Origin: an uncultured Planctomycetales bacterium
GTDB lineage: Bacteria > Omnitrophota > Gorgyraeia > Zapsychrales > CAYJUK01
DNA: 61,246 nucleotides
Assembly: GCA_964373335.1 (NCBI GenBank)
Contig: CAYJUK010000001.1
Location: 719 to 61,964, forward strand
Direction: 5' to 3'
Made by a program: the position numbers and the translations under genes. The number at the start of each line of letters is the position of its first letter. Position 1 is the first letter of the stretch. The notes below the pieces were generated by a model. The model saw nothing but the letters and a program-made list of their open reading frames with translations, was not told the DNA's origin and made no database searches. Positions 20,307 to 45,956 of this stretch are shown here, piece after piece.

Positions 20307-20366
20307 ATAAAGCGGAACATCCTTAATGAGTCATCAAGGCCTTTGAGCGTTCTCTTGCGATGGTAG
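20289..20366 (+). other. 25-codon ORF (MRRTMRIKRNILNESSRPLSVLLRW) whose MRIKRNILN mimics the phnW N-terminus MRLKRNILLN; relic gene start or leader ORF
   Basis: Hand translation. The ATG at 20289 and its duplicate at 20301 overlap TGA stops in ATGA fashion. Confidence 0.4.
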
Positions 20367-20388
20367 TAGACAAACAGGATTAACCCCA

Positions 20389-21531
20389 ATGATGCGTTTG
20401 AAAAGAAATATTCTTCTGAATCCCGGACCAGCAACAACAACAGATTCGGTCAAAAGAGCCTTGCTGGTCCCTGATATCTGTCCGCGAGAAAAAGAATTTA
20501 CTAAACTTGTTACCGAGATCAGAAAAGATCTGGTGAAGGTCGCTGCGGGAGATAAAAGATACACCGCGGTGTTATTCTCTGGAGCGGGGACGGCAGCGAT
20601 GGAGGCATGCATGAGCTCTGTTGTTCCCCCAAATAAAAAAGTGGCCATTATTGTTAACGGGGCTTATGGAAAACGATTCGTCGAGATTGCAGAGACTTAT
20701 CAGCTGGAAACTGTTGTGATCCCGTTCCCATCCCATGAAATTCCCAATCTCAGAATCATTGAGGATGTCCTGAAGAAAGACCGGCAGATTCGGGTTTTGG
20801 CCATCATCCACCATGAGACCACAACCGGTCTTTTAAACCCTATTCGAGAAGTTGGGAAAATAGCCGCAAAATACCGCTGCACCTATATTGTGGATGCGAT
20901 GTCCAGTTTTGCCGGGATCCCAATTAATATTATTGATTGCGATATCGATTTTCTCATCTCTACTTCTAATAAATGTATCCAAGGGATGCCGGGTATTTCA
21001 TTTGTGATTGGCCGGATCGAGGCCCTGAATCGATTAGAAATGATTCCTCCCAGATCGTTTTACCTTAATCTTTATCAACAGTACCGTTTTCTGGAATTGA
21101 CTGGAGAGATGCAATTTACTCCCCCAGTGCAGGTCATCTATGCCTTGAAAAGGGCTATTCAAGAATATAGAACCGAAGGGGCATGGCATCGTTATCAAAG
21201 ATATTCTGAAAACTGGCTGACTTTGAGAAGAGGACTAGAAAAGTTGGGATTCAAATTCCTCCTGAATCAGGAGAATGAATCTCGTATCCTAACCACGGTT
21301 CATGAACCCCAGGACCCTAAATTCGATTTCCAGAAGTTCCATGATCAACTTTATAAAAAAGGTTATACCATCTATCCTGGGAAGTTGGGGGAGCTAAGGA
21401 CATTCCGTCTGGCCAATATGGGAGCCATAAACAAGAAGGATATTAAGAATTTTATGCGAGAAGTAGAAAAGGTCTTAAAAAAAATGGGCCTTCCGCTTAT
21501 TCAAAATAACGGGAAGGTGATTAGGGAATGA
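20389..21531 (+). CDS. phnW: 2-aminoethylphosphonate:pyruvate aminotransferase-type class V aminotransferase
   Basis: NILLNPGPATTTDSV N-terminus, IHHETTTGLLNP, and a PLP lysine in STSNKCIQGMPG. Adjacent to ppd. Confidence 0.82.
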   Translation: MMRLKRNILLNPGPATTTDSVKRALLVPDICPREKEFTKLVTEIRKDLVKVAAGDKRYTAVLFSGAGTAAMEACMSSVVPPNKKVAIIVNGAYGKRFVEIAETYQLETVVIPFPSHEIPNLRIIEDVLKKDRQIRVLAIIHHETTTGLLNPIREVGKIAAKYRCTYIVDAMSSFAGIPINIIDCDIDFLISTSNKCIQGMPGISFVIGRIEALNRLEMIPPRSFYLNLYQQYRFLELTGEMQFTPPVQVIYALKRAIQEYRTEGAWHRYQRYSENWLTLRRGLEKLGFKFLLNQENESRILTTVHEPQDPKFDFQKFHDQLYKKGYTIYPGKLGELRTFRLANMGAINKKDIKNFMREVEKVLKKMGLPLIQNNGKVIRE

Positions 21532-23636
21532 GTCGAGGAAACTTGCATCAACAAGAGAGGGCAGCTCATATTGGCTGGGTTGATACCCTGGGGACATATG
21601 TGCTGATCAAGATCCTTTGTCTCCACAGGCGGTATCGATTTAAGGAGGTCAATTATTTAACCATGAGTCCAAGGTGTCGATGGATTTTTTCCCGATGGTC
21701 AAAACATCCTTTGAAGTTTAAGCAAATCTTTCTTTCAGTCGAAGGATTGATGGCCAGTGATGAAAGGGTGACTACGGATAGAACTTTTTCTAATGTGAGT
21801 GAGCTCATTTACCGAAGCATCAAAACCGAAAGGTTTGTGGATAAGATGCTTGATCTCATTGATCCGCGGTATAACCGAAAGAAGATCGATCTTTATCTTA
21901 AGCAAGAAATTGCCGTTGAAATGAATAGTTATATGCTCGTTTTAGACTTTATTAAGCATTATTACCTCCCTCAGTCGCCTCATCCCAAGGCCCAACACCT
22001 GGTTTTCTTGAGAAGTGCTTATTGGCTGAAATATATCCGCGAGTTTTTTGGTGACCTGCCCGTCAGGATTATCCCCTATTTTAATATGATGGAAAAAATA
22101 AAGTTCGTTTTTGCATTTGTGAGGATTTTGGCCGAACTCGTTTTAAACCTCGGATTGATCCTCAGTGGAAAAGAACTTAAATTACAGGGAATCCCTCAGC
22201 AGCCCAAAATCGCTATAGCTCATCTGCAGGATTTTCATTTAGCAAGACGTTCTGATTTCTTCTGGCTTCCCGGGTCAGGGATAAAAATGCAAAATGTTCT
22301 TTTGTATTTTAAATATGCGAACCGGCCCGCTGATTCTGAGACCCTCCGGCATCTACGGATGGTGAATATCCCGTATATTAATCTTCTTCCTCTGAGGATT
22401 TCCTTAAAGAAGATCTTTGGAGGAACGGCGGAATTTAACAAGTTTCCCACTATGATTTATGTTCGTAAATGTCTCAGTACTTTTTGTGTTGCTATTCATC
22501 TATTCTTCTTCGCTTTAAGGCAGAGGGATAAGATTTATTTATCTCTTCTGACAAATTTGATTGATCTTTTAAATCAAGTTGATTTTTTTGAATCATTTTT
22601 TAAGACATACAAGGTTAAGGTCCATTTTGCCCTGCATGAAACTGGCCGGGATATGATCGCATCGAATATCGCTATGGAGTGCGTGGGGGGAGTGGATGTG
22701 GGTATGCATTGGTCCAGTTATGAGGTAATTCATTTAGCTTTAGGGAAGGTTCAAGATGTGCATTTTACCTGGGGACCGTTATATTACTCCAATTATTTTG
22801 ATAAACCCTATTACTTGGTTAAGAATTTTGTTTACACTGGTTACCCATTTGATCGATTCTTTAAATTAGGAGCCATTCAGGCCAGGCAATATCGAGATCT
22901 GTTATTACAGAATGGCGCCAAATTTATTATTTCGTATTTTGATCAAAGTAATAATGATGATCTGCCGTTATGGGATAAAGAGTTGGAGAATTTTTATCAA
23001 TGTCTTTTAGAGTTGGTGGTCAGGGATGAAAAATTTGGTCTTATTATTAAGCCAAAGAAAAGAAGTCCGGAGGGAAGAATGCCGAATCTTTCCAAATTTA
23101 TTCAAAAAGCGGTTTTAACGAGAAGATGCTTGATCCTGGATGCCCAAGTGTTTCCCAATGAAGCGGCTTTAGCCTCTGATCTGGCCGTTGCTATCCACGT
23201 GGCCAGTACACCGGCGGTAGAATCGGCCCTGGCAGGAATCTGTGCATTAACCTATGATCCCGAATCTCATTGGGAACACCCTTTTTATAAGCAAGGCTAT
23301 CGAAAGATCACATTTAACAATTTGGAGGAATTTTTTTCCGCTGTAGAGAAGATTCGAAATCAAACCGGGGATGCGAAGGAGATTGGGAATTATAATTTCC
23401 TTTTCCCGGGGATTGATCCTTTTAGAGATGGATGCGCCAGTCAAAGAATGGGACAGTACATGCACAGCCTGATCAAGTGCTTTGAGGAGGGACGAAATAA
23501 AGAGGAAGCGATCCTTTATGCAAATAAAATATATCAGGGAAAATGGGGAGAAAATGCTATCGTAAAGACATCTCAAAGAGAAGAAAAGGATCATGCCAGG
23601 GAAGGAATAAAAACAAAGGAAGCCTTAGTGAATTAG
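21528..23636 (+). CDS. uncharacterised 702-aa protein, paralogue of 30620; GT-B/TagF-like C-terminal half
   Basis: ATGA overlap with phnW. The C-terminal region aligns by eye with the 30620 product (IISYFDQSNNDD / IISVFDSTFNDN; GLIIKPKK / FIVLKEKK; VASTPAVESALAGICALTYDP / FTSTSLEALSIQKKAVWYDP). Has internal hydrophobic segments. Confidence 0.6.
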   Translation: MSRGNLHQQERAAHIGWVDTLGTYVLIKILCLHRRYRFKEVNYLTMSPRCRWIFSRWSKHPLKFKQIFLSVEGLMASDERVTTDRTFSNVSELIYRSIKTERFVDKMLDLIDPRYNRKKIDLYLKQEIAVEMNSYMLVLDFIKHYYLPQSPHPKAQHLVFLRSAYWLKYIREFFGDLPVRIIPYFNMMEKIKFVFAFVRILAELVLNLGLILSGKELKLQGIPQQPKIAIAHLQDFHLARRSDFFWLPGSGIKMQNVLLYFKYANRPADSETLRHLRMVNIPYINLLPLRISLKKIFGGTAEFNKFPTMIYVRKCLSTFCVAIHLFFFALRQRDKIYLSLLTNLIDLLNQVDFFESFFKTYKVKVHFALHETGRDMIASNIAMECVGGVDVGMHWSSYEVIHLALGKVQDVHFTWGPLYYSNYFDKPYYLVKNFVYTGYPFDRFFKLGAIQARQYRDLLLQNGAKFIISYFDQSNNDDLPLWDKELENFYQCLLELVVRDEKFGLIIKPKKRSPEGRMPNLSKFIQKAVLTRRCLILDAQVFPNEAALASDLAVAIHVASTPAVESALAGICALTYDPESHWEHPFYKQGYRKITFNNLEEFFSAVEKIRNQTGDAKEIGNYNFLFPGIDPFRDGCASQRMGQYMHSLIKCFEEGRNKEEAILYANKIYQGKWGENAIVKTSQREEKDHAREGIKTKEALVN

Positions 23637-28024: not shown

Positions 28025-28099
28025 TGAGTTCAATGTCAAACTCTTGTCAGATAACCCGAGAGTTCATTGAGCAATGATCTTGAGGACGGATGTGAGTTG

Positions 28100-29572
28100 A
28101 TGACCATGGCGTTTCGTATCTTAGTGATCACCGAAGGCAAGAGGACTATTGGGTTAGGGCACCTATCCCGATGCCTGGCCTTAGTTCAGGCCTTTCAGGT
28201 TGTGAGAAAAGATTGTACCGTCAAGTTTATTGTGAACGGTGATCGTATCGCCGGGGAATTTCTCCGGAAAAATCAAATGGGATATCAATTGACGGACTGG
28301 CTGAGGCAAAAACAAAGACTTTTCAAGCTTTGTGAACAAGTGGATATTGTGATCATCGACACGTATTTAGCTAAGGAGGATTTCTTTGAAGAAGTAGATA
28401 AGGCTAAACGGTCCGAGGCCCTGGTGATTGTCATCGATGACAGTAACAGGATACATTATCAAGCGGATGTGATTGTCAACCCGTTCATTTATGGAGGGCG
28501 TCTCCCTTACCGAGAGGATTCTCAAATATTTCTGGCAGGCAGAAAATTCGTTATTGTCAGGAAGGAGTTCTGGAACGTCCCTTTCAAAAAGATCAAAAGA
28601 GAGGTCAAGGATGTCCTCATTATCTTTGGGGGGACTGATCAATCATTAAGGATCAAAAAAGTGGTTGATTGTATATTGAAATGGAACCCTTTCTTGAGGA
28701 TCCATATTGTCTCACCTCATTCTTTAAGTTCGTTGAGGAAACTCAACGGTGTCATTTTTTATCAAAATCTCCCAGGCCATAAAATCAAGGATCTGATGTT
28801 AAGGGCTGATGTCTGTTTAACCGGCGGAGGACAAACCACAAATGAATTAGCCAGATGCGGTGTCCCTTCGATTGGCATCGGCTTTGCTGAAAACCAAAGA
28901 TTGAGCCTGGAAGGTTGGAAGGATTGGGGATTTATGAAAGATTATCTCTGGGCTCATGATCCGCATTTGGCCGATAAATTGCCCTTGATCTTTGGGAGAA
29001 TCTGGGCTTATGAAAAACGCTTAATCCTTTCGAAAAGGGGACGAAGCCTCATTGATGGTCAAGGTCCTTTGAGGATTGCTAAGTCGGTCATCGCTTTGAA
29101 AAGGGAGAGTTTAAAATTAAGAAAGGTTAAAAAAGAAGACTGTGGTTTCCTTTTCCGCTGGCGGAATCATCCCGAGGTCCGGAGATACAGTCTAAATCAC
29201 AATAGGATTAAATATGCGGAGCATCAGCAATGGTTTTTTCGTGTCATCCGTGATCCTAACATCAAGATTTTTATTGCTTATCACGGGAAAGAACGCATCG
29301 GTGTGATTCGATTTCATCGGGGACCGTCGAAAAGCATCATTAACGTGAACCTCAATCCCCGCTTTATTGGAAAGGGCTTAGGTCCCGGGATTATCAGAGA
29401 TGGGACAAGGAGATACATTCAAGAAAACCGGGTCAAGAAACCTATTATTGCGGAGACATTGAAGAGCAATGTTAGGTCTCAAAGGGCCTTCGAAAAGGCG
29501 GGGTTTCATCTGTGTCGAACTAACGGAGAGTCTTCAGGGGTGGTGAGATATGAATATTGTCAGGCGCCATGA
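28100..29572 (+). CDS. PseG-like UDP-sugar hydrolase (GT28-like fold) fused to a PseH-like GNAT N-acetyltransferase
   Basis: N-terminal FRILVITEGKRTIGLGHLSRCLALVQAF and GGGQTTNELARCGVPSI (PseG type). The C-terminal ~160 aa, LRKVKKEDCGFLFRWRNHPEVRRYS..GKGLGPGII..AFEKAGF, is GNAT. The start is ambiguous (TTG 28067, ATG 28100 or ATG 28106). Confidence 0.75.
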   Translation: MTMAFRILVITEGKRTIGLGHLSRCLALVQAFQVVRKDCTVKFIVNGDRIAGEFLRKNQMGYQLTDWLRQKQRLFKLCEQVDIVIIDTYLAKEDFFEEVDKAKRSEALVIVIDDSNRIHYQADVIVNPFIYGGRLPYREDSQIFLAGRKFVIVRKEFWNVPFKKIKREVKDVLIIFGGTDQSLRIKKVVDCILKWNPFLRIHIVSPHSLSSLRKLNGVIFYQNLPGHKIKDLMLRADVCLTGGGQTTNELARCGVPSIGIGFAENQRLSLEGWKDWGFMKDYLWAHDPHLADKLPLIFGRIWAYEKRLILSKRGRSLIDGQGPLRIAKSVIALKRESLKLRKVKKEDCGFLFRWRNHPEVRRYSLNHNRIKYAEHQQWFFRVIRDPNIKIFIAYHGKERIGVIRFHRGPSKSIINVNLNPRFIGKGLGPGIIRDGTRRYIQENRVKKPIIAETLKSNVRSQRAFEKAGFHLCRTNGESSGVVRYEYCQAP

Positions 29573-29581
29573 GGGGATTTC

Positions 29582-30613
29582 ATGAAAGAATTCCGATTCC
29601 CTAAAAGCTGTTTCATCATTGCGGAGATTTCCGCGAATCACGGAAGGAGTTTTCAAAGGGCTGCTTCATTAATCAAAATGGCTAAAACCGCTGGCGCGGA
29701 CGCGGTCAAATTTCAAGTCTATACCCCGGAAACCATCAGTTTGAATTCGAGAAATAAATACTTTATGATTCAACATCCTCAATGGGGAGGGCAATCGCTC
29801 TTTGATCTCTATCAAAAGGCTTATACCCCTTGGTCATGGTTTAAGGGATTAAAACGAATCGCTGAGGAGCAGGGGCTTGTCTTTTTTGCCAGTGTATTTG
29901 ATAAAAGTTCGGTTGATTTTCTGGAAGGACTGGGGGTGTCTTTATATAAAATTGCCTCTTTTGAGCTGGTGGATTTGCCGCTGATCGCTTATGCGGCTAA
30001 GACTAAAAAACCTATCATCATCTCCACCGGAATGGCGACGAAAAGAGAGATCGATGAGGCCGTTCAGGAGGCGCGGAAAAACGGGGCTAAGGAATTGGCC
30101 ATCCTCAAATGCGTTAGCAGCTATCCCGCTGATCCGAGCCATATGAATTTACGAAGTATCCCTCATATGCAAAAAACTTTCGGCTTGCCCATCGGATTAT
30201 CGGATCATACCCTAGGAGTTGGAGTTTCGGTGGCGGCGGTGACTCTGGGCGCTCGGGTGATTGAGAAACATATCATATCTTCAAGAAGGCTTAAGACTCC
30301 CGATCATTTTTTTTCGATGGAGCCCCATGAGTTCAAATTGCTGGTAGAAAGTATTAGAACTGTTGAAAAGGCCATGGGAAAGGTTCATTACGGTTTAACC
30401 CCGGAAGAATATCAAAGCCGGATATTCCGGCGTTCCCTTTTCGTTGTGAAGGATATCAAAAAGGGAGAGTTGTTATCGGAAGAGAATGTCAGATCAATAA
30501 GGCCTGCCAATGGTCTGGCTCCTAAAAATGTGTATAAGATAATCGGGAAAAGAGCCCAATGGGATTTAAAGAGGGGAACCCCATTAACCAAAGAGATGGC
30601 CGGGGTTAATTAA
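29582..30613 (+). CDS. pseI: pseudaminic acid synthase (NeuB family)
   Basis: FIIAEISANHG, DAVKFQVYT, LSDHT, and a C-terminal SAF domain (VRSIRPANGLAP). Confidence 0.86.
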   Translation: MKEFRFPKSCFIIAEISANHGRSFQRAASLIKMAKTAGADAVKFQVYTPETISLNSRNKYFMIQHPQWGGQSLFDLYQKAYTPWSWFKGLKRIAEEQGLVFFASVFDKSSVDFLEGLGVSLYKIASFELVDLPLIAYAAKTKKPIIISTGMATKREIDEAVQEARKNGAKELAILKCVSSYPADPSHMNLRSIPHMQKTFGLPIGLSDHTLGVGVSVAAVTLGARVIEKHIISSRRLKTPDHFFSMEPHEFKLLVESIRTVEKAMGKVHYGLTPEEYQSRIFRRSLFVVKDIKKGELLSEENVRSIRPANGLAPKNVYKIIGKRAQWDLKRGTPLTKEMAGVN

Positions 30614-30619
30614 AGGAAG

Positions 30620-32593
30620 ATGATGCGAAAGATTATTGTCTTTGAAGAGATTATACCGGCCTACCGTTGGCTGATTGAGATCTATCTCAGAATGGGTTTT
30701 GAAGTCTATTATTGGAGGATCAATAAATCCATTGAGGAGATGGGTTGGTTTAAGAGAAATTTAAAGCCGGGGAGGATCAAAAAGGTTCCATTCAGCTTTC
30801 TTCTTCATTATACCGATGGGATTTCCGACACCCAGGCCTTCGAGAATTTAGAGCGCTTTTTCCCTGCCTTCCTGAAAAGAAATCCAGTCCTCCCTGACAT
30901 GAAAAAGCTTTATGATTCCGATCATATTGAATTAGCCTTTAAGAATATCCTGATCAAGAAACTGGCCAGGTTTTATTACCTTAAAGAAAATATGTCGCGG
31001 CTGAGAGAGTCTTTTGGGAAAGAGGATGTGATTCTTTTTTATCCGGTCCGGTCAACAGATGTTTTCCAGATTCTTGATTGTGATGTCTCGGATTATCAAA
31101 TGTTTATTAAAGAGGACCATCTCCTTGGGGCAGAGATCAAAAACAATCACAATGTCCATTTCCCTCGCTGGCTGATTTTGTCAAGGTCTATTCAATGCCA
31201 ATGGAAACGGCTGATTTGTCTGGCGAAGATTTTTATGATAATGGGATACATGGTCATCAACTTGGCGAGAAAGCCTCTTCAAAAACAATTCTTTAAATAC
31301 GGGATCCTGGTGCTCTCGGAAAGGCAGTTTGAGACAGACCTCAAGCCCATAGATTTTCTGGCGGATGGGACCCAAATTTTAAAATCCGAGATCATCTTTA
31401 TTCCTTACAACCGTCTCACCAAGAATCAAATCGATCATCTGAAACGGAAACGATTGAATTATATTGAAGACTCCAATACCTTTTTTAAATGGTCGGTAGT
31501 CAAGAAAGGAATTGCCTATTTTCTAAGATTAATCAAAGTGAGTTTACTGCTGGACATTGATATCTTATCGAATACCATGCGGCTGATTTATTATTACGTG
31601 AAGTGGGAATCGTTTTCCGAGAGACTGGGAGTCCAGCATTCCATCACCCAGAATACGGATACAGTGAATCAAGCGATTGCCCGCGATTTGATCTTTAAGC
31701 AGAAAGGGACGGTGAGCTGGAAATATATGGATTCTTCGAGTCTGGTGAATTATTTTTTCCCATTGAAAGATGTCACCATGGCCAAGGAGAACTCATTTGT
31801 TTATATGTATTGCGACAATCTTGTTTCCTGGTCTAGAGATAATACAGAGATTTTTAAAACGACAAGATCCGTGGTACAAAATTACTGGGAGACAGGACAT
31901 TTTTGGGCCGAATATGCTCGCATGATCCAGGAGCAAAGGATCGTCTCCATCCTCAAGGATATCCTGAGCTGCAATGGTTTGAGCGAACATCACAAAATTA
32001 TCAGTGTCTTTGACTCAACCTTCAATGACAATACCATGAACACCTATGAGGAGGGGATCAGGTTTCTAGAGGATATCTATAGGCTCTTAGAAGAATTCCC
32101 GGATGTTTTTATTGTTTTAAAAGAGAAGAAAACCAGAGAGGCGGTCTTTGGAGATTCTCCAACGATGGCCAACTTGTACAGCAAAGTCGAATGTCATCCG
32201 CGGTTCTATTCGGTTAAAAATTTTATCAGCCCGTCAGAGGTCATTGCGTTCAGTGAGGTGGTGATATCATTTCCTTTTACTTCAACGAGTTTGGAGGCCT
32301 TATCGATTCAGAAAAAGGCCGTTTGGTATGATCCCACTCATCTTTACCAGGGGACATTTTATGATAAAGTGCCGGGCTTGGTGTGTCATAACTATCAAGA
32401 GCTTTTATCGCAAGTCAGAAAATTGTTATATCAGACAACGGAAGAACAATACCGAGAATTCCTTAAAAGGTATATTGAGAATTATTGCTGTTCTTCTTTG
32501 GATGGATTAGGGATCACGCGATTCCGCGGGCTTTTGGTTAAATATGAAAATTTAGTCAATCTTCATAAGCTTGAGAAATCATTGATAGCATAA
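30620..32593 (+). CDS. uncharacterised 657-aa protein, paralogue of 21528; GT-B/TagF-like C-terminal half
   Basis: See 21528 for the alignable blocks. No canonical GT2/GT4 motif. Confidence 0.6.
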   Translation: MMRKIIVFEEIIPAYRWLIEIYLRMGFEVYYWRINKSIEEMGWFKRNLKPGRIKKVPFSFLLHYTDGISDTQAFENLERFFPAFLKRNPVLPDMKKLYDSDHIELAFKNILIKKLARFYYLKENMSRLRESFGKEDVILFYPVRSTDVFQILDCDVSDYQMFIKEDHLLGAEIKNNHNVHFPRWLILSRSIQCQWKRLICLAKIFMIMGYMVINLARKPLQKQFFKYGILVLSERQFETDLKPIDFLADGTQILKSEIIFIPYNRLTKNQIDHLKRKRLNYIEDSNTFFKWSVVKKGIAYFLRLIKVSLLLDIDILSNTMRLIYYYVKWESFSERLGVQHSITQNTDTVNQAIARDLIFKQKGTVSWKYMDSSSLVNYFFPLKDVTMAKENSFVYMYCDNLVSWSRDNTEIFKTTRSVVQNYWETGHFWAEYARMIQEQRIVSILKDILSCNGLSEHHKIISVFDSTFNDNTMNTYEEGIRFLEDIYRLLEEFPDVFIVLKEKKTREAVFGDSPTMANLYSKVECHPRFYSVKNFISPSEVIAFSEVVISFPFTSTSLEALSIQKKAVWYDPTHLYQGTFYDKVPGLVCHNYQELLSQVRKLLYQTTEEQYREFLKRYIENYCCSSLDGLGITRFRGLLVKYENLVNLHKLEKSLIA

Positions 32594-32610
32594 TCAAAGA
32601 AATATAATCT

Positions 32611-34590
32611 ATGCGTATTATTCTCTTAGAGTTTATTGATGAAGTCCAGGCGTTGATAAAACTTTATGGGAAAGAATTTTTTCTGGATACTGACACAATA
32701 ACCATCTGCATTCACCCTAAGGCGAGAGCTTATTTGAAAAATCTTGGAATACATTCTCAAGACACCCTTCCGTATTTAGATAATGAAGCTCAAAATCGCA
32801 TCATTTTAAAAAGTGAACAGTTAACCGTCAAATTAGTGGAGGAGCTGCGATTCAAAGACGATTTTGGATTTGAGAAGGGTTATCGGGAGACGTGTATTCA
32901 TCATGTGCGGTTTTATATTAATTATTTTCTCTGGATTATTGAGCTCCTGAAAGGAATCTTTGAAAAACATGGATCACAAGTTGAGGCTGTTTATGCCTGT
33001 ATCCCTCTTGGCCAGGTTCAATGCAATTCACGGCTGGGTTATATCCAGGATAGGGAACGTTATTTGGGGGTCATGACGAAGGAGTATTGTCTGATCAAAG
33101 ACGTTAATTTTATTCCTGCCAAGATGGTTCTTCAGCAAGAGCCATTCTGGGAACGGTGTGCTGCCGCTTTTGCCCGTCAACTTTTGAAAGTCTTTTTTAG
33201 GATTCATTATAAGATCTTGGCAAGGAGGGATTATAAAAATCATGACGTGGTCATCGTACCTGGCCTTTCCTATCGGATGGATCTATTGCTGAAAGATATT
33301 AAAAATCGTTATCCTCAAGTTAAAGCCTTTATGATTTGGGAAGGAGGGGAATCCTTTAGAAGACAATTAGCCAAGAGTTATATGACATTAACCCATCTCC
33401 AAAAAAAATGGAAAAGGGAGAATCTTTTGGAGTCGATCATTCATTTAGATTTTATCAAGGGAGATTTTCGTTTAGATCCCGCGATACAAAAAAATTTTTC
33501 TCAACACTTCGACGCATTGCTGGCTATGATTGACTCCGGCTTCAAGGAAGAATGTCATTATGAAGGGATAACGATCGCCCCTTACTTGAAAGAAAAGGTA
33601 GGCGGAGGGTTAAAACAGGAAATCTTGAATTTACAGCATTCCACGTATTGTTTAAGTGAAATCTTTAAAAAGTTTAAGCCCAGACTCTTGATCTCTATGT
33701 ACAGTGCCGGCATCTTTTATATGATGGGCGAGTTGGCTAATTATTATCATTTTCCCGCGCTTAATATCAGTCATGGGACGCATGTTCCTCCCAATAATGA
33801 ATTTGAAAGGATTGAAAATTATCGGCTTTCGACCAGCGTGATTATGAATACTTATCCCATTGTGGCTGTCCAAACCCCCTGGGCGGAAAAATTTTTGGAT
33901 TATTATGGAGATCGCCGCAAAAGGATTTTAACCGGCCCGTTGTTGTATTCGGAGATTAATCGCAGTGAAAGAGAGGCCCTGCTTCAACACCTTTGGGGTC
34001 ATCAATCGAATAGAAAAATTATTGTTCATGCGGCTACCCAGAAACCACGGTATGGCCTCCGTTTTCATATCACCGAAAGCCTCGATGAATATATCGCTGC
34101 TCTTGCTGATATTGTTGGGGTTGTCAATAACCTCAAAGACGTTTATCTTATCATTAGACCCCATCCCAGCTGTAATCTCAGCGAGGAAGAATTTCGCCTC
34201 CTATTGCCAGATTCCACGAAGGTCAAGGTGCTAGGGAAGGGGCCTTTCTCCCGCATTCTCTCTGCCAGTGATTTGATGATCAGTTATTCTTCAACTTGTA
34301 TTGAGGAGGCCACCCAGAATGGAGTTCCGGTATTGCTGTATGATAAGTGGAAGAGGTATAATCACTTTAATATTGGGGAGATTGATGATCCTTTTTCTTT
34401 AAAAAAGCAACCCTCCTACTATTTGACACATTCGGATTTATTGAAGCCAACCCTAGAAAAACTTCTCACGATGTTTCCTGATCCTTCTTTTGCAGGCCAG
34501 GAAATCCCCGAGTACAAATACCCCAAGAATTATCGGACTCATTTCACTCAATTTGTGGATCAAGCATTGAATGGAGGTATTCCTCAGTGA
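32611..34590 (+). CDS. uncharacterised 659-aa putative GT-B transferase with an HP...SxSST signature (sialyltransferase/TagF-like)
   Basis: C-terminal Rossmann-like unit KIIVHAATQ.., VYLIIRPHPSCN, then DLMISYSSTCIEEATQNGVPVLLYD. Confidence 0.6.
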   Translation: MRIILLEFIDEVQALIKLYGKEFFLDTDTITICIHPKARAYLKNLGIHSQDTLPYLDNEAQNRIILKSEQLTVKLVEELRFKDDFGFEKGYRETCIHHVRFYINYFLWIIELLKGIFEKHGSQVEAVYACIPLGQVQCNSRLGYIQDRERYLGVMTKEYCLIKDVNFIPAKMVLQQEPFWERCAAAFARQLLKVFFRIHYKILARRDYKNHDVVIVPGLSYRMDLLLKDIKNRYPQVKAFMIWEGGESFRRQLAKSYMTLTHLQKKWKRENLLESIIHLDFIKGDFRLDPAIQKNFSQHFDALLAMIDSGFKEECHYEGITIAPYLKEKVGGGLKQEILNLQHSTYCLSEIFKKFKPRLLISMYSAGIFYMMGELANYYHFPALNISHGTHVPPNNEFERIENYRLSTSVIMNTYPIVAVQTPWAEKFLDYYGDRRKRILTGPLLYSEINRSEREALLQHLWGHQSNRKIIVHAATQKPRYGLRFHITESLDEYIAALADIVGVVNNLKDVYLIIRPHPSCNLSEEEFRLLLPDSTKVKVLGKGPFSRILSASDLMISYSSTCIEEATQNGVPVLLYDKWKRYNHFNIGEIDDPFSLKKQPSYYLTHSDLLKPTLEKLLTMFPDPSFAGQEIPEYKYPKNYRTHFTQFVDQALNGGIPQ

Positions 34591-35348
34591 ATGTTGTCCT
34601 GATCATGGCTAAAGAAGGAAGTCTGGGCCTTCCGGGGAAAAACATATGGAAGATTAAGGAGAAAGGGACATTGCTTGAGTGGACGATCTCGGATGGCCGG
34701 CAATCCAAACTCGTTGATCGGGTTTTTGTCAGTACTAATGGGGAGAAGATCGCTCGTATCGCTCAAGAGGCCGGGGCTGAGGTGATCAGGAGAGAAGATG
34801 AGTTAGCCAAGAATGAAAAATTCCTGGAAGGTGTGGATCATGCCATCAGGACAATCAAAACATTCCATCCCTCGTTGGCTGTAATTGCGATTCCGCAATG
34901 CGTGGTTCCTTTCCGGGATCCTGATATCTTTGACCGCTGCATCTCGTTTTTATTGGAGAATAAGGCATATGATTCCGCGATCACGATTCGGAATGTGGGA
35001 TTTATCCCGGAGGCCTTAATGAAGATTGAGGGAGAAGATCTCATCCCTTATTTCCCTCACACGCAGGCCAACGTCTCCGGCTCCCGGCAAGACAGCTCCG
35101 GTTATGAGATTGATCATGCAGTAGAATGTTTTCGTTATGAGTCCTGGTTGAATCGAGAAAAAGGTATCCGGCCGTGGAATTATTTGGGGCGTAAGATCAA
35201 GGGAATCAAACAGTATTTTCATAATCCCAATTGCTTTGTCGATGTCCATGAGATCGATGACATCCGCTGGCTGGAATTTATTATTGATCATTGGGGATGC
35301 CAAGGGATGAAGTCTGCGACTTTAAGGAAAGATTATACTTGTTCTTAA
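34587..35348 (+). CDS. acylneuraminate cytidylyltransferase-family protein (third CMP-NulO-synthetase-like gene)
   Basis: GTGA overlap with the upstream gene. VVLIMAKEGSLGLPGKNIWKIKEKGTLLEWTI resembles the NeuA N-terminus. Confidence 0.72.
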   Translation: MNVVLIMAKEGSLGLPGKNIWKIKEKGTLLEWTISDGRQSKLVDRVFVSTNGEKIARIAQEAGAEVIRREDELAKNEKFLEGVDHAIRTIKTFHPSLAVIAIPQCVVPFRDPDIFDRCISFLLENKAYDSAITIRNVGFIPEALMKIEGEDLIPYFPHTQANVSGSRQDSSGYEIDHAVECFRYESWLNREKGIRPWNYLGRKIKGIKQYFHNPNCFVDVHEIDDIRWLEFIIDHWGCQGMKSATLRKDYTCS

Positions 35349-35493
35349 TGAAAACTTCGCACAAAACGGCGAAGTTTTCATTAAACCCCAATTTTGCAAT
35401 ACAAAATGTGGGGTTAAACCCCAATTCAACACCCGGGTGCTGAATTGGGGTAAACAAGCATTTCCTAAATACGAAATTTTGATTAATAGGTGG
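35334..35493 (+). repeat. left copy of a long inverted repeat; composite of three hairpins
   Basis: Hairpin 1 has a 16-bp perfect stem (35345-35360 / 35369-35384). Hairpin 2 is at 35384-35415 (AACCCCAATTTTG..CAAAATgTGGGGTT). Hairpin 3 has an 11-bp perfect stem (35418-35428 / 35441-35451). Its reverse complement recurs at 56829-56952. Confidence 0.85.
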
Positions 35494-35498
35494 GATAG

Positions 35499-36443
35499 AT
35501 GTCAAAAGGGAAATTATTTATATCAACGACCACATTTGGGCTCTGTGATCCAATGCCTTTATTGAAATTAAAAAAGGCAAAGATCAATTTTTCCTTGAAT
35601 CCTTTAAAAAGGACATTAACCACCGCGGAGCTCATCAATTTTCTGGATGGATCAAATTATCTGATCGCGGGAACGGAAAGAATTACCCGGGAAGTCTTTC
35701 GCCAATGTCCTCATCTGGAATTCATCTCACGCTGTGGCAGCGGAATCGATAACATTGACCTTAAGGCGGCGGAACAATATAATGTTTCAATTTCCTCAAC
35801 CCCGGAAGCGCCGGTTGGGGCAGTGGCCGAACTGACGCTTGCTTTCATATTGAATACATTAAGAAATATCAATTCCGCCGATCGGATGTTGCGAGAGGGG
35901 AAGTGGCAGAAGCCCATGGGAAATCTCCTCTTTGGGAAGAAGATTGGGATTCTTGGATTCGGCAGGGTTGGCAGACGATTGGCCCATTTATTGCAGCCTT
36001 TCGAGGTACAGTTTTTGATCCACGAGATCATGCCTCCAAAGATTGTCAAGGGGCTGAAAAATCTCCAATTTTTATCACTCAGAGAGGTTTGTAAGCAAGC
36101 TGATATTTTGACAATTCATTTGCCTTACTCTTTCAAGGTTCATCATCTGATCAATCAGAGGACTTTAAGTTTGATGAAAAAGGATTTGATATTGATCAAT
36201 ACCTCCCGGGGAGAGATTGTGGATGAACAGGCCTTGGCCGATGCCCTTTCACAAAAGAAAATCAAAGCAGCTGCCTTGGACGTATTCGAGCAGGAACCTT
36301 ATTCCGGCCCGTTGACACAGTTTGAAAACGTTCTTCTAACTCCGCATCTGGGAGCTTATACGAAAGAAACACGTGTCGCGATGGAGCTAAAGGTTGTAGA
36401 GAACGTTTTAGATTATCTTCAGAGGCGCCCCGCCAATGATTAA
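35499..36443 (+). CDS. D-isomer-specific 2-hydroxyacid dehydrogenase (phosphoglycerate dehydrogenase/hydroxypyruvate reductase-like)
   Basis: NAD motif KIGILGFGRVGRRLAHLL, then INTSRGEIVDEQAL and TPHLGAYT (catalytic His region). Confidence 0.82.
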   Translation: MSKGKLFISTTTFGLCDPMPLLKLKKAKINFSLNPLKRTLTTAELINFLDGSNYLIAGTERITREVFRQCPHLEFISRCGSGIDNIDLKAAEQYNVSISSTPEAPVGAVAELTLAFILNTLRNINSADRMLREGKWQKPMGNLLFGKKIGILGFGRVGRRLAHLLQPFEVQFLIHEIMPPKIVKGLKNLQFLSLREVCKQADILTIHLPYSFKVHHLINQRTLSLMKKDLILINTSRGEIVDEQALADALSQKKIKAAALDVFEQEPYSGPLTQFENVLLTPHLGAYTKETRVAMELKVVENVLDYLQRRPAND

Positions 36444-37092
36444 GGCTATTATCTTAGATTTTGACGGGATTATTCTAGAGACCAATAGGATTAAGCTCAA
36501 TGGATTCTTGCATTTGTTTCGAGACTATCCTTTGAAAATTCGAAGAAGGATTAGAGATTTACATCTGAATAATGGAGGGGTTTCCCGATTTAAGAAATTC
36601 CGAATCATTTATCATGAGTTTTTGAAAGCACCTTTAATCCCTAAGGAAGAAAAGCGCTTAGGAGAAGAATTTTCCTCATATTGCTTCCAACAGGTCTTAA
36701 AAGCCCCTTATGTAAAAGGCATAAAGGTATTTTTAAATTGGGCTTACAGAAGGTATAATTTATTCATTGTCTCAGCCACTCCAGAGGCCGAAATCAGAGA
36801 GATCGTAAAGCGAAGAAAATTAAATAAATTTTTCAAATCTGTGTATGGATCACCCCATCCCAAAGAAGCCCTTTGCCGTAAGATTATCAAGAAGAATAAA
36901 TTTAAAAAAGAAGACGTATTGTTTATTGGGGACTCTCTGAGTGATCTCAGAGGGGCGGAGGCCAATCAGGTGGATTTTGTTGTGAGGATTCATGAGGATA
37001 ATAAAAAATTATTCAAGAATAAGGAGATTCTTCGAATTAAAAATTTTGTCAATTTTCCAGCCCGATTGAGAAAATCTTATGAAGAAAAATAA
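36436..37092 (+). CDS. HAD-superfamily phosphatase
   Basis: Motif I IILDFDGIILET (DxD), motif II VSATP, motif IV FIGDSLSD. Confidence 0.78.
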   Translation: MIKAIILDFDGIILETNRIKLNGFLHLFRDYPLKIRRRIRDLHLNNGGVSRFKKFRIIYHEFLKAPLIPKEEKRLGEEFSSYCFQQVLKAPYVKGIKVFLNWAYRRYNLFIVSATPEAEIREIVKRRKLNKFFKSVYGSPHPKEALCRKIIKKNKFKKEDVLFIGDSLSDLRGAEANQVDFVVRIHEDNKKLFKNKEILRIKNFVNFPARLRKSYEEK

Positions 37093-39623: not shown

Positions 39624-39629
39624 GAGAGA

Positions 39630-40688: not shown

Positions 40689-40755
40689 AGAAACGTGGTA
40701 TTATCCCTCGTTTTTCTGGGATCAAAGAAATTTTTAATATTGCGAACTTAATGAA

Positions 40756-43282: not shown

Positions 43283-43340
43283 GAAGGTAGGGAAGAGGAA
43301 GACCATTCTTCGCTGTCCAACTCCTTTTCTGGGAATCATA

Positions 43341-44075
43341 ATGAGAGTGATCGGTGTTATACCAGCGCGTTTAAAATCTACCCGGCTTCCCAATAAGGCC
43401 CTGGTGGATATTGAAGGGCTCCCCATGATTGTCCATGTCTTTAAACGAGCGGCGTTGTCTCAAGTCCTCGATGATGTCTTTGTCGCCACGGATAGTCCGG
43501 AGATTTATCAAACAGTCGTTCGTTTTGGCGGGAAGGCGGTTATGACAGCTTCTCACCATCAAACTGGTACGGATAGAGTTGCAGAAGCGGTTTCGTCTTT
43601 AACAACAGATATTGTTGTTAACATTCAAGGGGATGAACCTTTATTGGTCCCAGAGCATATTGATCAGGTTGTTGAACCCCTCTTGAGGGATAAGAATATT
43701 CAGGTGGCTATTTTAGTGGCTCCTTTTTCGAGAAAAAATAGTCCTTCGGATATTAAGGCCGTTCTGGATTTAGACCATAATATATTATATTGTTCCCGGA
43801 CAGATCTCCCTAGCCAGGCCCGGAATCCGGTGGAAATGATGTGGAAGATGTGTTTCATCGTCCCCTTTCGAAAGGATTTTCTTCTTCAATATACTTCCTG
43901 GTCTCAGACACCTTTGGAAAAGATTGAATTGAATGAATATTTACGGATTTTGGAACATAGTCATAAAATTAAAGCGGTTTGTGTACAGAAGGCCCATATC
44001 AGCGTCGATACTCCTCAGGATCTTGAAGAAGTTAAAGAGATCATGAAACAGGATCCCATCAAGCCCATGTACTGA
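43341..44075 (+). CDS. KdsB-family 3-deoxy-ulosonic acid cytidylyltransferase
   Basis: VIGVIPARLKSTRLPNKALVDIEGLPMIVHV, HQTGTDRVAEA, VNIQGDEPL. Confidence 0.82.
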   Translation: MRVIGVIPARLKSTRLPNKALVDIEGLPMIVHVFKRAALSQVLDDVFVATDSPEIYQTVVRFGGKAVMTASHHQTGTDRVAEAVSSLTTDIVVNIQGDEPLLVPEHIDQVVEPLLRDKNIQVAILVAPFSRKNSPSDIKAVLDLDHNILYCSRTDLPSQARNPVEMMWKMCFIVPFRKDFLLQYTSWSQTPLEKIELNEYLRILEHSHKIKAVCVQKAHISVDTPQDLEEVKEIMKQDPIKPMY

Positions 44076-44132: not shown

Positions 44133-45956
44133 ATGATCATCCTTTCTAATATCCCGGGAGTTATTCTGAATTTCCTCCTTCATGGTTACCCTGTTAGCCA
44201 ATGGATCTATTTAGGGAAAAGTGATAAAGTTCTCTATAAATTAAAACGTTTTCTCCCTTCCCAGGCTCATTCCATTGATTATGCCCGTAAGCTCTATGAA
44301 TTAAGCGAAAAATGGAGAGATCAATATATCCGCTGGATCGATGAAATTTCTTTTTCCGGGCCGATCAGTAAAGAATGGCTTTTCTCTGTCCCCGCGGTTA
44401 AAAATCCCTATATTAGCAATGTTTATCTTTATCTTTGCTACTTCTTTGTATTGGAAGAATATCTTCGGGAAGATAAAAAAATAGATCTGGTGATCGTTGA
44501 TTCTCCTGCCTTAAGTTTCCTGTTGAAAAAGTATTTTTCCAAACGCATCCGATCCCATCCTATCAATGCTTTCCTGGGAAGCAGAATTTATCTGGAAGTC
44601 TTTTTCCGGACTATTTTAAGATTCTTTCGGCATGCCATTGATTTTGCCAGGGCTTGGGTTGCGGCCAAGAGGGTCTTTAAAGACAGATGCAGAAAGCTAC
44701 TCCGAGATAAGAAGATTATACTTATTAGAAATTATATTACGGTTCAGTATTTAAAATCCAAAACGGAAGAATTTGATCTACGGTACTTCCCTAAACTTTA
44801 TTCTTATCTTCAAGAACATAATAGTGTTCCTGTCTTTCTCCCATTGGCTGTGGTGAGGAATTATCGTAAATTATATAAGAAGGTGAGGGAGAGTAAACAA
44901 CTGATTATTTTTCCAGAGGAATTTTATAAAGTCCGGGATTATTTCAATACTTTTTCCAGTCCTCTGCGTGCCTTATGTTATCCATTAAAAATCCCGGAGT
45001 TATCGGGTTACTCTTTCGCTCCTCTGATTCGGGAAGAATATTATGCTAACCTGACTCAATCTGGCATCCTTAATGCCATTCTTCTATCCTGTTTTGGCAG
45101 ACGGTTAAAACAAAGCGCCATTGATCTTAAAGGGATCATCAATTGGGCGGAATTTCAAGCCTTTGAAAAGGGATTGGTGAGTGGATTAAGAGAGGCGTTC
45201 CCTGCGGCCAAGTTCATCGGCAGTCAGCCCTTTTTGACTGCTCCTAATCATATGTCACTGATCCCTAGTCAACAAGAGAGATTATTAAGATTAATTCCCG
45301 ACCGTCTTCTGGTATTAGGCCCTCTCGGGAAAAGACTAATCAACGACTATACTGTTAATGTGAATGTTGATTTTACTCCTGCATTTCGTTATCAATCCGT
45401 TTTCAAGTCTTTTTCTTCCAGAAACGGTGAGCATAAGAATATTTTGGTCTTGATGGGATATAGTTTGACCAATGCGGTCCATACCATGAAGATCTTGTGT
45501 CAGTGTCGAGAATATTTACAGGACTATCAATCCGTATATATTAAACTTCATCCAGTTGCGAATTATAACAAAGAGATTTTGATGAAGGAGACTATTATGG
45601 CCTTGCCTCATAATTTTAAATTTGTTGAAGGGGCCCTGGAGAGTTATCTGGAAAAGATTTCTTTGAGTATTTGTGGAGGTTCTGGAACGGCTGTTGAGGT
45701 TGTTTTGAGAGGTATTCCCGTCATCCTTATAGCTGATAGTAACACATTGACTATGAATTATCTCTCTTATAAGCGGGATCCCTATTTATGGAGGTTGTGT
45801 TTTTCTCAAGATGAGGTCAAGGAAGCTCTGCAATACTTTCGCAAAATCCTCTGTGAGCAGCCAGAACAATTAAGTCAAAAGGCTTTGGAGTTCAGAAGGT
45901 TATATTTTGCTGAACCGGATAATCGTTATTGGGAAAATTATTTGATTCGGGAATGA
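44133..45956 (+). CDS. uncharacterised 607-aa putative GT-B transferase with an HP signature
   Basis: C-terminal NILVLMGYSL.., VYIKLHPVANY, then ISLSICGGSGTAVEVVLRGIPVILI. Same layout as the product of 32611. Confidence 0.58.
   Translation: MIILSNIPGVILNFLLHGYPVSQWIYLGKSDKVLYKLKRFLPSQAHSIDYARKLYELSEKWRDQYIRWIDEISFSGPISKEWLFSVPAVKNPYISNVYLYLCYFFVLEEYLREDKKIDLVIVDSPALSFLLKKYFSKRIRSHPINAFLGSRIYLEVFFRTILRFFRHAIDFARAWVAAKRVFKDRCRKLLRDKKIILIRNYITVQYLKSKTEEFDLRYFPKLYSYLQEHNSVPVFLPLAVVRNYRKLYKKVRESKQLIIFPEEFYKVRDYFNTFSSPLRALCYPLKIPELSGYSFAPLIREEYYANLTQSGILNAILLSCFGRRLKQSAIDLKGIINWAEFQAFEKGLVSGLREAFPAAKFIGSQPFLTAPNHMSLIPSQQERLLRLIPDRLLVLGPLGKRLINDYTVNVNVDFTPAFRYQSVFKSFSSRNGEHKNILVLMGYSLTNAVHTMKILCQCREYLQDYQSVYIKLHPVANYNKEILMKETIMALPHNFKFVEGALESYLEKISLSICGGSGTAVEVVLRGIPVILIADSNTLTMNYLSYKRDPYLWRLCFSQDEVKEALQYFRKILCEQPEQLSQKALEFRRLYFAEPDNRYWENYLIRE

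Follow-up and report, generated by a model that had tools for sequence, protein, structure and literature searches.

Two distinct protein families of predicted GT-B fold beside sugar-acid activation genes in an Omnitrophota glycan locus: candidate CMP-dependent transferases

What is the function of two large, adjacent, uncharacterised proteins whose genes sit among those for the synthesis and activation of acidic sugars? The genes in question are found in a stretch of 61,246 nucleotides (hereafter the window) from an uncultured Planctomycetales bacterium, placed in Omnitrophota by GTDB (GenBank assembly GCA_964373335.1, contig CAYJUK010000001.1, positions 719 to 61,964 of the forward strand), which forms a single long co-directional locus for glycan biosynthesis. 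We name the two proteins by position as A and B, along with two others encoded in the window, C and D (Table 1). A first-pass annotation of this DNA had described A and B as a tandem pair of candidate nonulosonic acid (NulO) transferases or polymerases, and the two open reading frames (ORFs) are of the size, position and strand then reported. We conclude that A and B represent two distinct, large, uncharacterised protein families. Furthermore, we give an even chance to the proposal that both are GT-B transferases dependent on cytidine monophosphate (CMP)-activated donors, each adding one acidic sugar to a surface glycan.

Two protein families with a predicted GT-B fold

AlphaFold2 yields confident models of both proteins (pLDDT 91 and pTM 0.91 from a 43-sequence alignment for B; pLDDT 83 and pTM 0.82 from a 13-sequence alignment for A). 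Foldseek comparisons with the PDB return 182 matches for B and 235 for A at E ≤ 1e-3, and essentially all of the top 50 are GT-B proteins aligned over ~430-520 columns. Specifically, the best matches to B are NeuC and UDP-GlcNAc 2-epimerases, CalG1-3, PimB' and VinC (E 2e-9 to 5e-7), and those to A are trehalose-6-phosphate synthases (OtsA), 2-epimerases and TagF (E 3e-9 to 2e-7), the last represented by 3l7m, 3l7k and 3l7j at E about 1e-7. On these models, A and B are predicted to fold as GT-B; the absence of this fold, which the first-pass annotation had named as grounds for giving up a transferase assignment, is not what we observe. In the model of B, the two GT-B domains (N and C) are preceded by an extra N-terminal alpha/beta domain.

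A, B, C and D had been grouped at first pass as a four-member set with a shared C-terminal layout. This layout is real at the profile level: hhalign gives 99.4% for A-C (561 aligned columns), 95.4% for B-D (152 columns), 95.3% for C-D (233 columns), 93% for A-B (166 columns), 87% for B-C (261 columns) and 10% for A-D (304 columns). The set holds at that level alone. BLASTP among the four detects the A-C relationship alone (E 1e-6) and nothing between A and B (E > 0.5), and jackhmmer, iterated on ORFs from related loci, unites A with C and B with D but leaves the two classes apart. Given this split and the lack of BLASTP similarity between A and B, the tandem pair is not a duplication. Rather, it comprises one member from each of two distantly related classes, and no relationship between A and B extends beyond the nucleotide-binding domain. 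The two classes carry contrasting motifs at an aligned position, with (K/R)xHP in B and D and K-x-K-K in A and C, and they also differ near residue 200, where A and C have a strongly hydrophobic helix that B and D lack. This segment in A, which lies within a modelled helix spanning residues 183-216, has a Kyte-Doolittle 19-residue mean of 2.06 and its counterpart in C (residues 194-212) a mean of 2.19, whereas neither B nor D contains any 19-residue segment at or above 1.6.

Protein A is a bona fide member of TIGR04417, which it matches at 140.1 bits against a cut-off of 100. This family and PF27878 bear the NCBIfam/Pfam name 'polysaccharide biosynthesis PFTS motif protein'. All 13 homologues of A match TIGR04417 (best E 1e-48) and carry precomputed PF27878 assignments, and no publication on this family was found in the literature searched. 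The residues K501-E502-K503 are invariant in 13/13 homologues, are preceded by a strand at 496-501 and are placed by hhalign opposite the RPHP of B. The PFTS motif is similarly well conserved: S550 and P552 are invariant, and F553, S555, T556 and position 557 are at least 90% conserved.

Protein B belongs to a large family. An exhaustive HMMER search of 1.84 billion 50%-identity representatives recovers 1,464 of them at E ≤ 1e-3 and 584 at E ≤ 1e-30. The genomic matches all come from metagenome-assembled genomes (MAGs), whose sources are Omnitrophota, Planctomycetota (including Brocadiaceae and Scalindua), Acidobacteriota, candidate phyla radiation (CPR) groups, a Micrarchaeota archaeon, SAR86, Pelagibacteraceae, Legionellaceae and Leptospiraceae. 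In scans of the NCBIfam and Pfam models, B itself exceeds no curated family cut-off. Its sub-threshold matches fall within residues 501-582 and include TIGR04396, named 'surface carbohydrate biosynthesis protein' (32.7 bits, E 4e-8, cut-off 125; C and A reach 22.2 and 15.9 bits, also below threshold), NF046086, the BFO_1060 family glycosyltransferase (24.7 bits, E 1e-5, cut-off 200; residues 501-576 on profile positions 211-288 of 365), and Pfam Epimerase_2 (PF02350; 17.8 bits against 30.6, E 1.6e-3, on profile positions 177-284 of 347 alone).

The same families recur among the 43 aligned relatives of B, of which 27 match TIGR04396, 26 match NF046086 (best E 4e-9, in the C-terminal part), 13 match Epimerase_2 weakly, seven match TIGR04326, and five match TIGR04331 (LIC12162 family transferase) weakly, at best with E 3.5e-4. 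The corresponding Pfam entry, PF27859, appears on some relatives and is marked weak in the single look-up that grades its hits. B has no match to TIGR04331 at E ≤ 1, and D reaches TIGR04326 below threshold at E 3e-8. All of TIGR04417, TIGR04396, TIGR04326 and TIGR04331 are annotation-only families, with A a member of the first and B, C and D sub-threshold to TIGR04396 or TIGR04326. In a clinical Herbaspirillum, genes for a 'surface carbohydrate biosynthesis protein' and a 'LIC12162 family transferase' occur together 3' of neu genes, and a transferase role has been speculated (PMC6679464). Searches of all PDB-chain sequences returned nothing relevant for the profiles of A, of B and of the B C-domain, or for the single relative P0044. 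A large homology search with the B C-domain profile found same-family fragments and no bridge to Tannerella or TagF proteins, apart from one fragment that bears a TagB/SpsB-type JGI name.

The C-terminal Rossmann domains of A and B share two elements: a basic motif after strand 2 (R-P-H-P in B, K-E-K-K in A) and, ~42-50 residues later, a turn rich in Ser and Thr, after which a Glu is conserved (SYSSTCIEE in B, PFTSTSLE in A). The peptides quoted in the first-pass annotation are present in both B (IIRPHPSCN, with H518, and 42 aa on ISYSSTCIEEA, with S560) and D (IKLHPVANY, with H473, and ICGGSGTAVEV). Their proposed strand and turn placement fits the model of B, in which the HP follows strand 511-516 and SST (S560-T562) lies between strand 555-558 and helix 561-569. 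Among the 43 relatives of B, the R or K is kept in 43/43 and the P in 37/43, and the intervening basic position is H in 28 and R in 15. All 19 sequences of the D family keep the K/R, the H and the P (K471-L-H473-P474 in D itself). Within SYSSTCIEE, S561 and T562 are invariant, S558, S560, E565 and E566 are at least 90% conserved, and this is the region that matches NF046086, TIGR04396 and Epimerase_2. Because the genome scan for relatives of B was seeded with the peptide S[YF]SST[CT]IEE, the invariance of SYSST in loci L008-L072 is not used as evidence. Nearly every one of the 66 genomic homologues of B retains the N-domain motif ISHG(T/S)H; H388 and G389 are found in 43/43 aligned relatives and H391 in 39/43.

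The (K/R)XHP motif is conserved in sialyltransferases of families GT29, GT38, GT42, GT52 and GT80 and in the retaining Kdo (3-deoxy-D-manno-octulosonate) transferases of GT99 and GT107, where the Pro packs on cytosine and the K/R usually hydrogen-bonds cytosine O2/N3 (PMC12887879). The earlier statement that an HP motif is a documented feature of bacterial GT-B sialyltransferase families is borne out for the motif of B and D. The resemblance extends to KpsC/KpsS (GT107), WbbB (GT99), KpsS1 (GT118) and KrkA (GT140), which use CMP-ulosonic donors, adopt a modified GT-B fold and contain the (K/R)xHP that B and D share. Although the A and B profiles do not match this group, a profile of 18 D-type proteins, compared with 177,635 PDB sequences, has KpsC (E 0.036) and WbbB (E 0.9) as its best glycosyltransferases. 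These matches are marginal and cover ~80 residues, and their alignments place the HP and the following Ser/helix together. One of the 18 D relatives also matches Glycos_transf_1 weakly. The marginal KpsC match is coherent with the KdsB-type neighbour of D, and a Kdo-like sugar is probably what D transfers.

Among proteins with experimental grounding, the closest to B are the Tannerella forsythia transferases of pseudaminic acid (Pse) and legionaminic acid (Leg) derivatives (Tanf_01245 / TFUB4_00887; NF046086), whose role is genetically proven (PMC5420450) and whose similarity to B is limited to the nucleotide-binding half. Deletion and complementation have established that Tanf_01245, whose orthologue in strain FDC 92A2 is BFO_1060, is needed to add a Pse derivative to the Tannerella O-glycan (PMC5420450). 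Like B, the Tannerella enzymes are encoded beside a CMP-NulO locus, are predicted to be GT-B/TagB-like and have a C-domain HP. Unlike B, they are ~445 aa rather than 659 aa long, and no N-terminal similarity to them is seen in B; moreover, the cytidylyltransferase partner of B is no clear PseF or LegF. Of the DXD and D/E-D/E-G motifs of the Tannerella enzymes, the latter is not conserved here, and DXD was not separately searched.

Gene neighbourhoods of A- and B-type genes

In the window, a complete pseudaminic acid gene set lies 5' of A, encoding PseB, PseC, an SGNH-like protein, the CTP_transf_3 cytidylyltransferase CT2 (at 27272), a PseG-PseH fusion and PseI. The NCBIfam equivalog scores of PseB (489 bits), PseC (504 bits) and PseI (452 bits, cut-off 340) all exceed their cut-offs. 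Only 6 bp separate pseI from A and 17 bp separate A from B, and the stop of B and the GTG start of the cytidylyltransferase gene CT3 share the 4-bp sequence GTGA, with a GGAGG 9 nt 5' of the CT3 start. The two genes had been placed at first pass between pseI and a third CMP-NulO synthetase gene. The first of these flanks is secure, whereas CT3 is a weak PseF relative that matches Pfam PF02348 at 51 bits and the PseF model at just 49.7 bits against a cut-off of 205.7. Likewise, the claim that each of the four proteins is encoded beside a nucleotidyl-activation gene holds for B and D, which alone abut a cytidylyltransferase gene, but not for A, which abuts pseI, or for C, which abuts a 2-aminoethylphosphonate (AEP) transaminase gene. 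We read this layout as linking A to Pse synthesis and B to its own cytidylyltransferase.

Is this association of B with a cytidylyltransferase retained elsewhere? We annotated 72 loci by ORF calling and phmmer searches with the window proteins as queries, and recorded the distances between matching ORFs. Of 66 B-type genes, 23 have a CTP_transf_3 cytidylyltransferase gene no more than 50 bp away, 49 have one within 3 kb and 60 have one within 10 kb. At the same distances, an HpcH or HMGL aldolase gene is found in 4, 16 and 28 cases, and an A/C-type gene in 7, 10 and 24. The order of B-type gene then cytidylyltransferase gene, with a gap of 0-16 bp, recurs in L001, L005, L010 and L016, and with a slightly wider gap in several other loci. 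B-type genes and a divergent cytidylyltransferase gene form a conserved cassette, mostly without NeuB.

The surroundings of this cassette depend on the type of B relative. Close relatives (42-52% identity, with RPHP) are followed by a CT3-like gene and then usually by a gene for a 214-223-aa protein of the haloacid dehalogenase (HAD) type. Further away are genes for an HpcH aldolase, a KdsB-like cytidylyltransferase, a 2-hydroxyacid dehydrogenase and short-chain dehydrogenases/reductases (SDRs), which together correspond to the module at 34587-44075 of the window. There, the stretch from 35499 to 43282 carries genes for a 2-hydroxyacid dehydrogenase, two phosphatases of the HAD type, one SDR, a Fe-S protein resembling LdpA, an HpcH/HpaI aldolase (at 40756) and a protein in which an HMGL aldolase is fused to an MptE-like domain; the KdsB-type cytidylyltransferase gene at 43341 and then D follow on the 3' side. 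This conserved module is bracketed by B- and D-type genes in the window and in L006, L007, L008, L011 and L016. NeuB-type synthase genes are usually missing from the 10 kb around it, and this suggests that the CMP-activated acidic sugar concerned is an undescribed one. Distant B relatives (with RFRP) occur instead beside genes for a ~245-aa cytidylyltransferase, a ~450-aa protein that joins a GT2 (GT-A) domain to a cytidylyltransferase domain and an ABC transporter, often MsbA/PglK-like (L023, L025, L028, L030, L036, L044, L046, L047, L052, L053, L055 and others); the fusion and transporter calls were made by eye from the sequences.

The HMGL-like pyruvate aldolase/MptE-like fusion of the window (41558-43282, 574 aa) scores 32.7 bits for its MptE-like part against a cut-off of 34.6, and MptE-like is the domain type of Maf flagellin NulO transferases. 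Fusions of 540-580 aa are also encoded beside B-type genes in L023, L026, L030-L032, L038, L040, L043 and L055, often with an LdpA-like Fe-S protein, a HAD phosphatase and a KdsB-like cytidylyltransferase. Such a fusion could be a further transferase or part of an ulosonic acid pathway that does not involve NeuB.

For A-type genes, the sample comprises 13 metagenome loci together with L003/L004, and most of the contigs start at the gene. Where at least 3 kb of upstream sequence is available, a PseI/NeuB gene is found 5' of the A-type gene in six of nine places. The distances are 6 bp in the window, 0.6 kb in L083, 2 kb in L003/L004, 3.3 kb in L078 and 8 kb in L080/L081, where L003 and L004 have the same arrangement and L080 and L081 nearly so. 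No such gene is present 5' of the A-type gene in L079, L084 or L015.

An A/C-type gene lies directly 5' of a B-type gene in seven loci, and it is of the C type in L001, L007, L010, L017, L051 and L057. In L015, a Candidatus Micrarchaeota archaeon MAG (5101-6933 and flanks), the order is exactly that of the window: A-type, B-type, cytidylyltransferase. This order implies either transfer of the cassette between domains or a mis-binned contig. Genes for 3'-phosphoadenosine-5'-phosphosulfate (PAPS) synthesis (ATP sulfurylase and adenosine 5'-phosphosulfate kinase) and sulfotransferases flank A/C-type genes in L001/L009 (4154-7856) and L003/L004 (12028-16011 in L003), and a sulfotransferase gene without PAPS genes does so in L007 (378-1466) and L079 (2808-3827). 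These neighbours hint at sulfated glycans, although with ~4 independent loci of 36 they are too infrequent for a call.

Proposed function and its alternatives

We hypothesize that A and B are distinct GT-B enzymes with a very distant relationship, and that each would transfer a CMP-activated ulosonic (2-keto-3-deoxy) acid to a growing surface glycan and release CMP. By analogy with published sialyl- and Kdo-transferase structures, the first K/R of the basic motif would contact cytosine, the H, R or K that follows would contact phosphate, and the Ser/Thr turn and its Glu would contact phosphate and ribose. Gene order points to particular donors, which we regard as tentative: CMP-Pse for A, which is encoded 3' of pseI, and the product of the overlapping CT3 for B. 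That product is probably no NeuB-type nonulosonic acid and may derive from the downstream dehydrogenase, HAD and aldolase genes. The missing QXXXD nucleophile motif provides a weak argument for an inverting mechanism, in which an N-domain base would act; for B, this base might, speculatively, be the invariant H388 of ISHG(T/S)H or E402. It is equally a matter of speculation that A may be membrane-associated via helix 198-216.

Candidacy of the pair as NulO transferases draws on the predicted GT-B fold, on (K/R)xHP, on the NF046086 matches among the relatives of B and on the linkage to cytidylyltransferase genes. CMP-dependent transfer is further favoured by the motif-to-motif profile alignments among the four proteins, by the matches of the D profile to KpsC and WbbB, by the PseI/NeuB genes 5' of A-type genes and by the presence in the window of four CTP_transf_3 genes with four such GT-B genes. 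Other observations weigh against the proposal. No sialyl- or Kdo-transferase is among the Foldseek top 50 for either protein; UDP-sugar 2-epimerases, OtsA and ordinary GT-B enzymes rank at or above TagF, and the comparison does not discriminate among GT-B families. The (K/R)xHP motif is absent from A (K-E-K-K) and C (K-P-K-K), and among the 66 genomic homologues of B it is present in 16, with ~50 having (K/R)xR instead. Given this substitution of His by Arg, the HP histidine is not a family-defining catalytic residue, and its mutation would be an ambiguous test; what counts at position 518 of B seems to be a basic residue in contact with phosphate, with His not indispensable. Many GT-B enzymes share the Ser/Thr turn and Glu. 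Matches to characterised families lie far below cut-offs and are confined to the generic nucleotide-binding half. The GT38, GT52 and GT80 sialyltransferases use CMP-NulO donors and have the GT-B fold and a C-domain HP (PMC2169525, PMC12887879), as B does; they differ in that no sequence or Pfam match to them exists, in that the His is Arg in most B relatives and in that their D/E-D/E-G motif is not conserved in the B, C or D alignments. A has a partial E/D-D-G at 477-479, located in a C-domain helix and not in the N-domain. The QXXXD nucleophile motif, absolutely conserved in WbbB, KpsC and KrkA (PMC12887879), is also missing, since none of the four family alignments has a column pair with Q ≥ 60% and D/E ≥ 60% at +4. 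Lacking a conserved D/E-D/E-G or QXXXD, the four proteins fall outside every known family of sialyl- or Kdo-transferases in CAZy, with a CMP-site signature shared by B and D.

Gene context carries its own objections. A NeuB/PseI-family synthase gene occurs within 50 bp of none of the 66 B-type genes, within 3 kb of one and within 10 kb of eight. This rarity makes Pse or Leg doubtful as the donor of B, and, set against the 49 of 66 with a CTP_transf_3 gene within 3 kb, it indicates that B probably uses the CT3 product and not Pse. The numbers of cytidylyltransferase genes and large GT-B genes in 48 loci are not correlated (rho 0.12, p 0.43), in what is a weak test, with loci spanning +/-10 kb. 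Adjacency and an HP motif are no proof of function, as demonstrated by B. subtilis SpsB, which has a TagB domain and HP motifs and is encoded beside CMP-Leg genes, yet is dispensable for Leg transfer (PMC7439481). Finally, no described members of the A or B family, and no biochemical data on them, were found in the literature searched.

If these proteins are not sugar-acid transferases, then what else might they be? It seems unlikely that they are TagF/TagB-like phosphotransferases, which would pass a phospho-alcohol or phosphonate (such as glycerol-phosphate, or AEP from CMP-AEP) to a glycan and release CMP without forming a glycosidic bond. TagF/TagB proteins (PF04464) have a GT-B-like fold and a CMP leaving group, TagF structures are among the top matches to A, with similarity at E about 7e-8, and one of the 43 B relatives matches Glyphos_transf (E 3.5e-5), in addition to the fragment with the JGI name; by contrast, none of A, B, C and D matches PF04464 at E ≤ 1, and what TagF/TagB enzymes transfer is glycerol-phosphate and not a sugar. 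The TagF-family C-domain motifs K-x-HP and x-Y-S-S are resembled here, in a comparison made without a TagF alignment. The window contains a complete AEP pathway, nucleotidyltransferases and a CDP-alcohol phosphatidyltransferase, and gene C overlaps the AEP transaminase gene, but AEP genes are absent near A/C-type relatives in 36 other loci. Moreover, the cytidylyltransferases encoded with B and D are of the CTP_transf_3 kind (KdsB/NeuA/PseF type, for ulosonic acids) rather than TagD-, IspD- or LicC-type; none of the TagD type was noticed in the locus, and the Tannerella TagB-domain proteins are NulO transferases (PMC5420450). We also consider it unlikely, and somewhat remote, that A and B are ordinary GT-B enzymes that use UDP-, GDP- or dTDP-sugars to build a neutral backbone, their position then reflecting membership of one large glycan locus. 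The UDP-, TDP- or GDP-dependent OtsA, CalG1-3, PimB' and VinC head the structural matches, K-x-K-K of A and C is like the basic diphosphate-binding residues of retaining GT-B enzymes, and the gene counts above are uncorrelated. Against this reading, the 4-bp overlap and the B-then-cytidylyltransferase order are kept across phyla, including in an archaeal MAG, and it is CMP-dependent enzymes for which (K/R)xHP has been reported (PMC12887879). In addition, neither A nor B matches a Pfam GT1, GT4 or GT28 model, and conventional GT2 and GT4-like genes, assigned by eye from translations, are already present at 55562 and 58732.

The first-pass annotation had also raised a heteropolymer of Pse and Leg or a poly-NulO chain, for which we find no specific support, and joint polymerisation by A and B is improbable. 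The two genes are adjacent and probably co-transcribed, a Legionellaceae MAG (L043) has a B-type gene beside NeuB, Legionella makes polylegionaminic acid, and many membrane-associated polymerases have a hydrophobic helix like that of the A/C type. Against this stand the unrelatedness of A and B outside one domain, the association of B with a cytidylyltransferase that is neither Pse- nor Leg-type, the distance of 20 kb to the Leg genes and the absence of tandem catalytic modules or repeats, and a Wzy_C/O-antigen-ligase-type protein encoded at 56966 offers a separate route for repeat-unit polymerisation or ligation. Highly improbable, in our view, is a role for B as a GT-B-fold sugar-nucleotide-modifying enzyme, either a 2-epimerase or a NeuC/PseG-like hydrolase, that makes a precursor for CT3. 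NeuC and UDP-GlcNAc 2-epimerases are its best structural matches (E 2e-9 to 1e-7, target TM 0.57-0.65), and some of its relatives match Epimerase_2; that match, however, covers the C-terminal nucleotide-binding half and is below cut-off, B is ~280 residues longer than the epimerases, NeuC- and PseG-type enzymes are already encoded in the locus, and D, a relative of B, matches Kdo transferases, if marginally.

Returning to CMP-dependent transfer of acidic sugars by A and B, a broader possibility, which we consider rather doubtful, is that B- and D-type proteins are founders of new glycosyltransferase families for ulosonic acids not made by NeuB-type synthases, with the PFTS proteins of the A/C type as membrane-associated counterparts specific for Pse/Leg-type sugars. 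The former sugars would be made by HpcH/HpaI and HMGL-MptE aldolases, a 2-hydroxyacid dehydrogenase and HAD phosphatases, and would be activated by CT3 and CT4. If true, an undescribed acidic-sugar pathway would be widespread in Omnitrophota, Planctomycetota including anammox lineages, CPR, SAR86 and Pelagibacteraceae, and would extend to a Micrarchaeota MAG.

A GT-B transferase with a CMP-type site, encoded beside sugar-acid activation genes, is a kind of protein already known, and related families are annotated 'transferase'. New here are the two separate, large and uncharacterised families that A and B represent, their apparent lack of the catalytic motifs by which each characterised NulO- or Kdo-transferase family is defined, and the conserved cassette of a B-type gene and a divergent cytidylyltransferase gene, mostly without NeuB. 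To our knowledge, very few enzymes are known that attach Pse, Leg or related acids, namely Maf, the Tannerella enzymes, KpsS1 (GT118) and a few promiscuous sialyltransferases. CAZy families GT118 and GT140 are each founded on a single characterised example. The B family, with ~1,460 representatives at 50% identity, has no studied member so far as the searched literature shows. If A and B were shown to be CMP-sugar transferases, they would provide handles for the chemoenzymatic synthesis of NulO glycosides, and the genomes of uncultured phyla could be used to read what surface glycans they make. That B is so tightly paired with CT3 also offers a direct route to what CT3 activates.

Composition of the surrounding locus

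Table 1. Coordinates in the window of the genes, motifs and segments discussed
Feature	Coordinates	Strand	Description
Gene A	30620..32593	+	PFTS-motif protein of 657 aa (TIGR04417/PF27878); GT-B fold predicted; candidate transferase with CMP-Pse as donor
Gene B	32611..34590	+	659-aa predicted GT-B protein of a large uncharacterised family
Gene C	21528..23636	+	702-aa paralogue of A along its full length; K-P-K-K and hydrophobic helix
Gene D	44133..45956	+	607-aa relative of B; invariant (K/R)xHP; directly 3' of KdsB-like cytidylyltransferase gene
pseI	29582..30613	+	Last gene of the PseB-PseC-(SGNH)-CT2-PseG/H-PseI set, immediately 5' of A
CT3	34587..35348	+	Divergent CTP_transf_3 cytidylyltransferase gene overlapping the stop of B; probable source of the B donor
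CT4	43341..44075	+	KdsB-type cytidylyltransferase gene 5' of D; NF009905, 265 bits against a cut-off of 255
B I386-H391 (ISHGTH)	33766..33783	+	N-domain motif with invariant H388-G389; candidate catalytic base
B R516-P517-H518-P519	34156..34167	+	(K/R)xHP motif of CMP-binding type after C-domain strand 2
B S558-E566 (SYSSTCIEE)	34282..34308	+	Ser/Thr turn and acidic helix start; general GT-B nucleotide-binding element
A residues 198-216 (LICLAKIFMIMGYMVINLA)	31211..31267	+	Hydrophobic helix, possibly membrane-associated
A K501-E502-K503	32120..32128	+	Located where B has R-P-H
A S550-S557 (SFPFTSTS)	32267..32290	+	PFTS motif, equivalent to SYSST of B by hhalign

The window contains a total of four CTP_transf_3 genes and four large GT-B genes of the A-D kind. 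Its first 11 kb encode a legionaminic-type pathway consisting of LegC, NeuD, NeuB, NeuC, a PtmE-like protein, a cytidylyltransferase, a PtmA-like protein and a WbuX amidotransferase, and genes for a CDP-alcohol phosphatidyltransferase and a Wzy_C/O-antigen-ligase-type protein are found as well. In the Pse set, the fused PseG and PseH protein (28067-29572, 501 aa) scores 123 bits for its PseG part and 52 bits for its PseH part, both below the equivalog cut-offs.

The AEP pathway occupies 14688-21531 and consists of a PEP mutase/NTP-transferase fusion, a phosphonopyruvate decarboxylase (399 bits), an aminotransferase and a separate nucleotidyltransferase; the start of C overlaps the stop of the aminotransferase gene by 4 bp. 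Three B12-binding radical SAM proteins are encoded at 11586-13256, 16418-18187 and 46102-47658, and many more are present in related loci, which suggests extensive C- or P-methylation of sugars or of the phosphonate.

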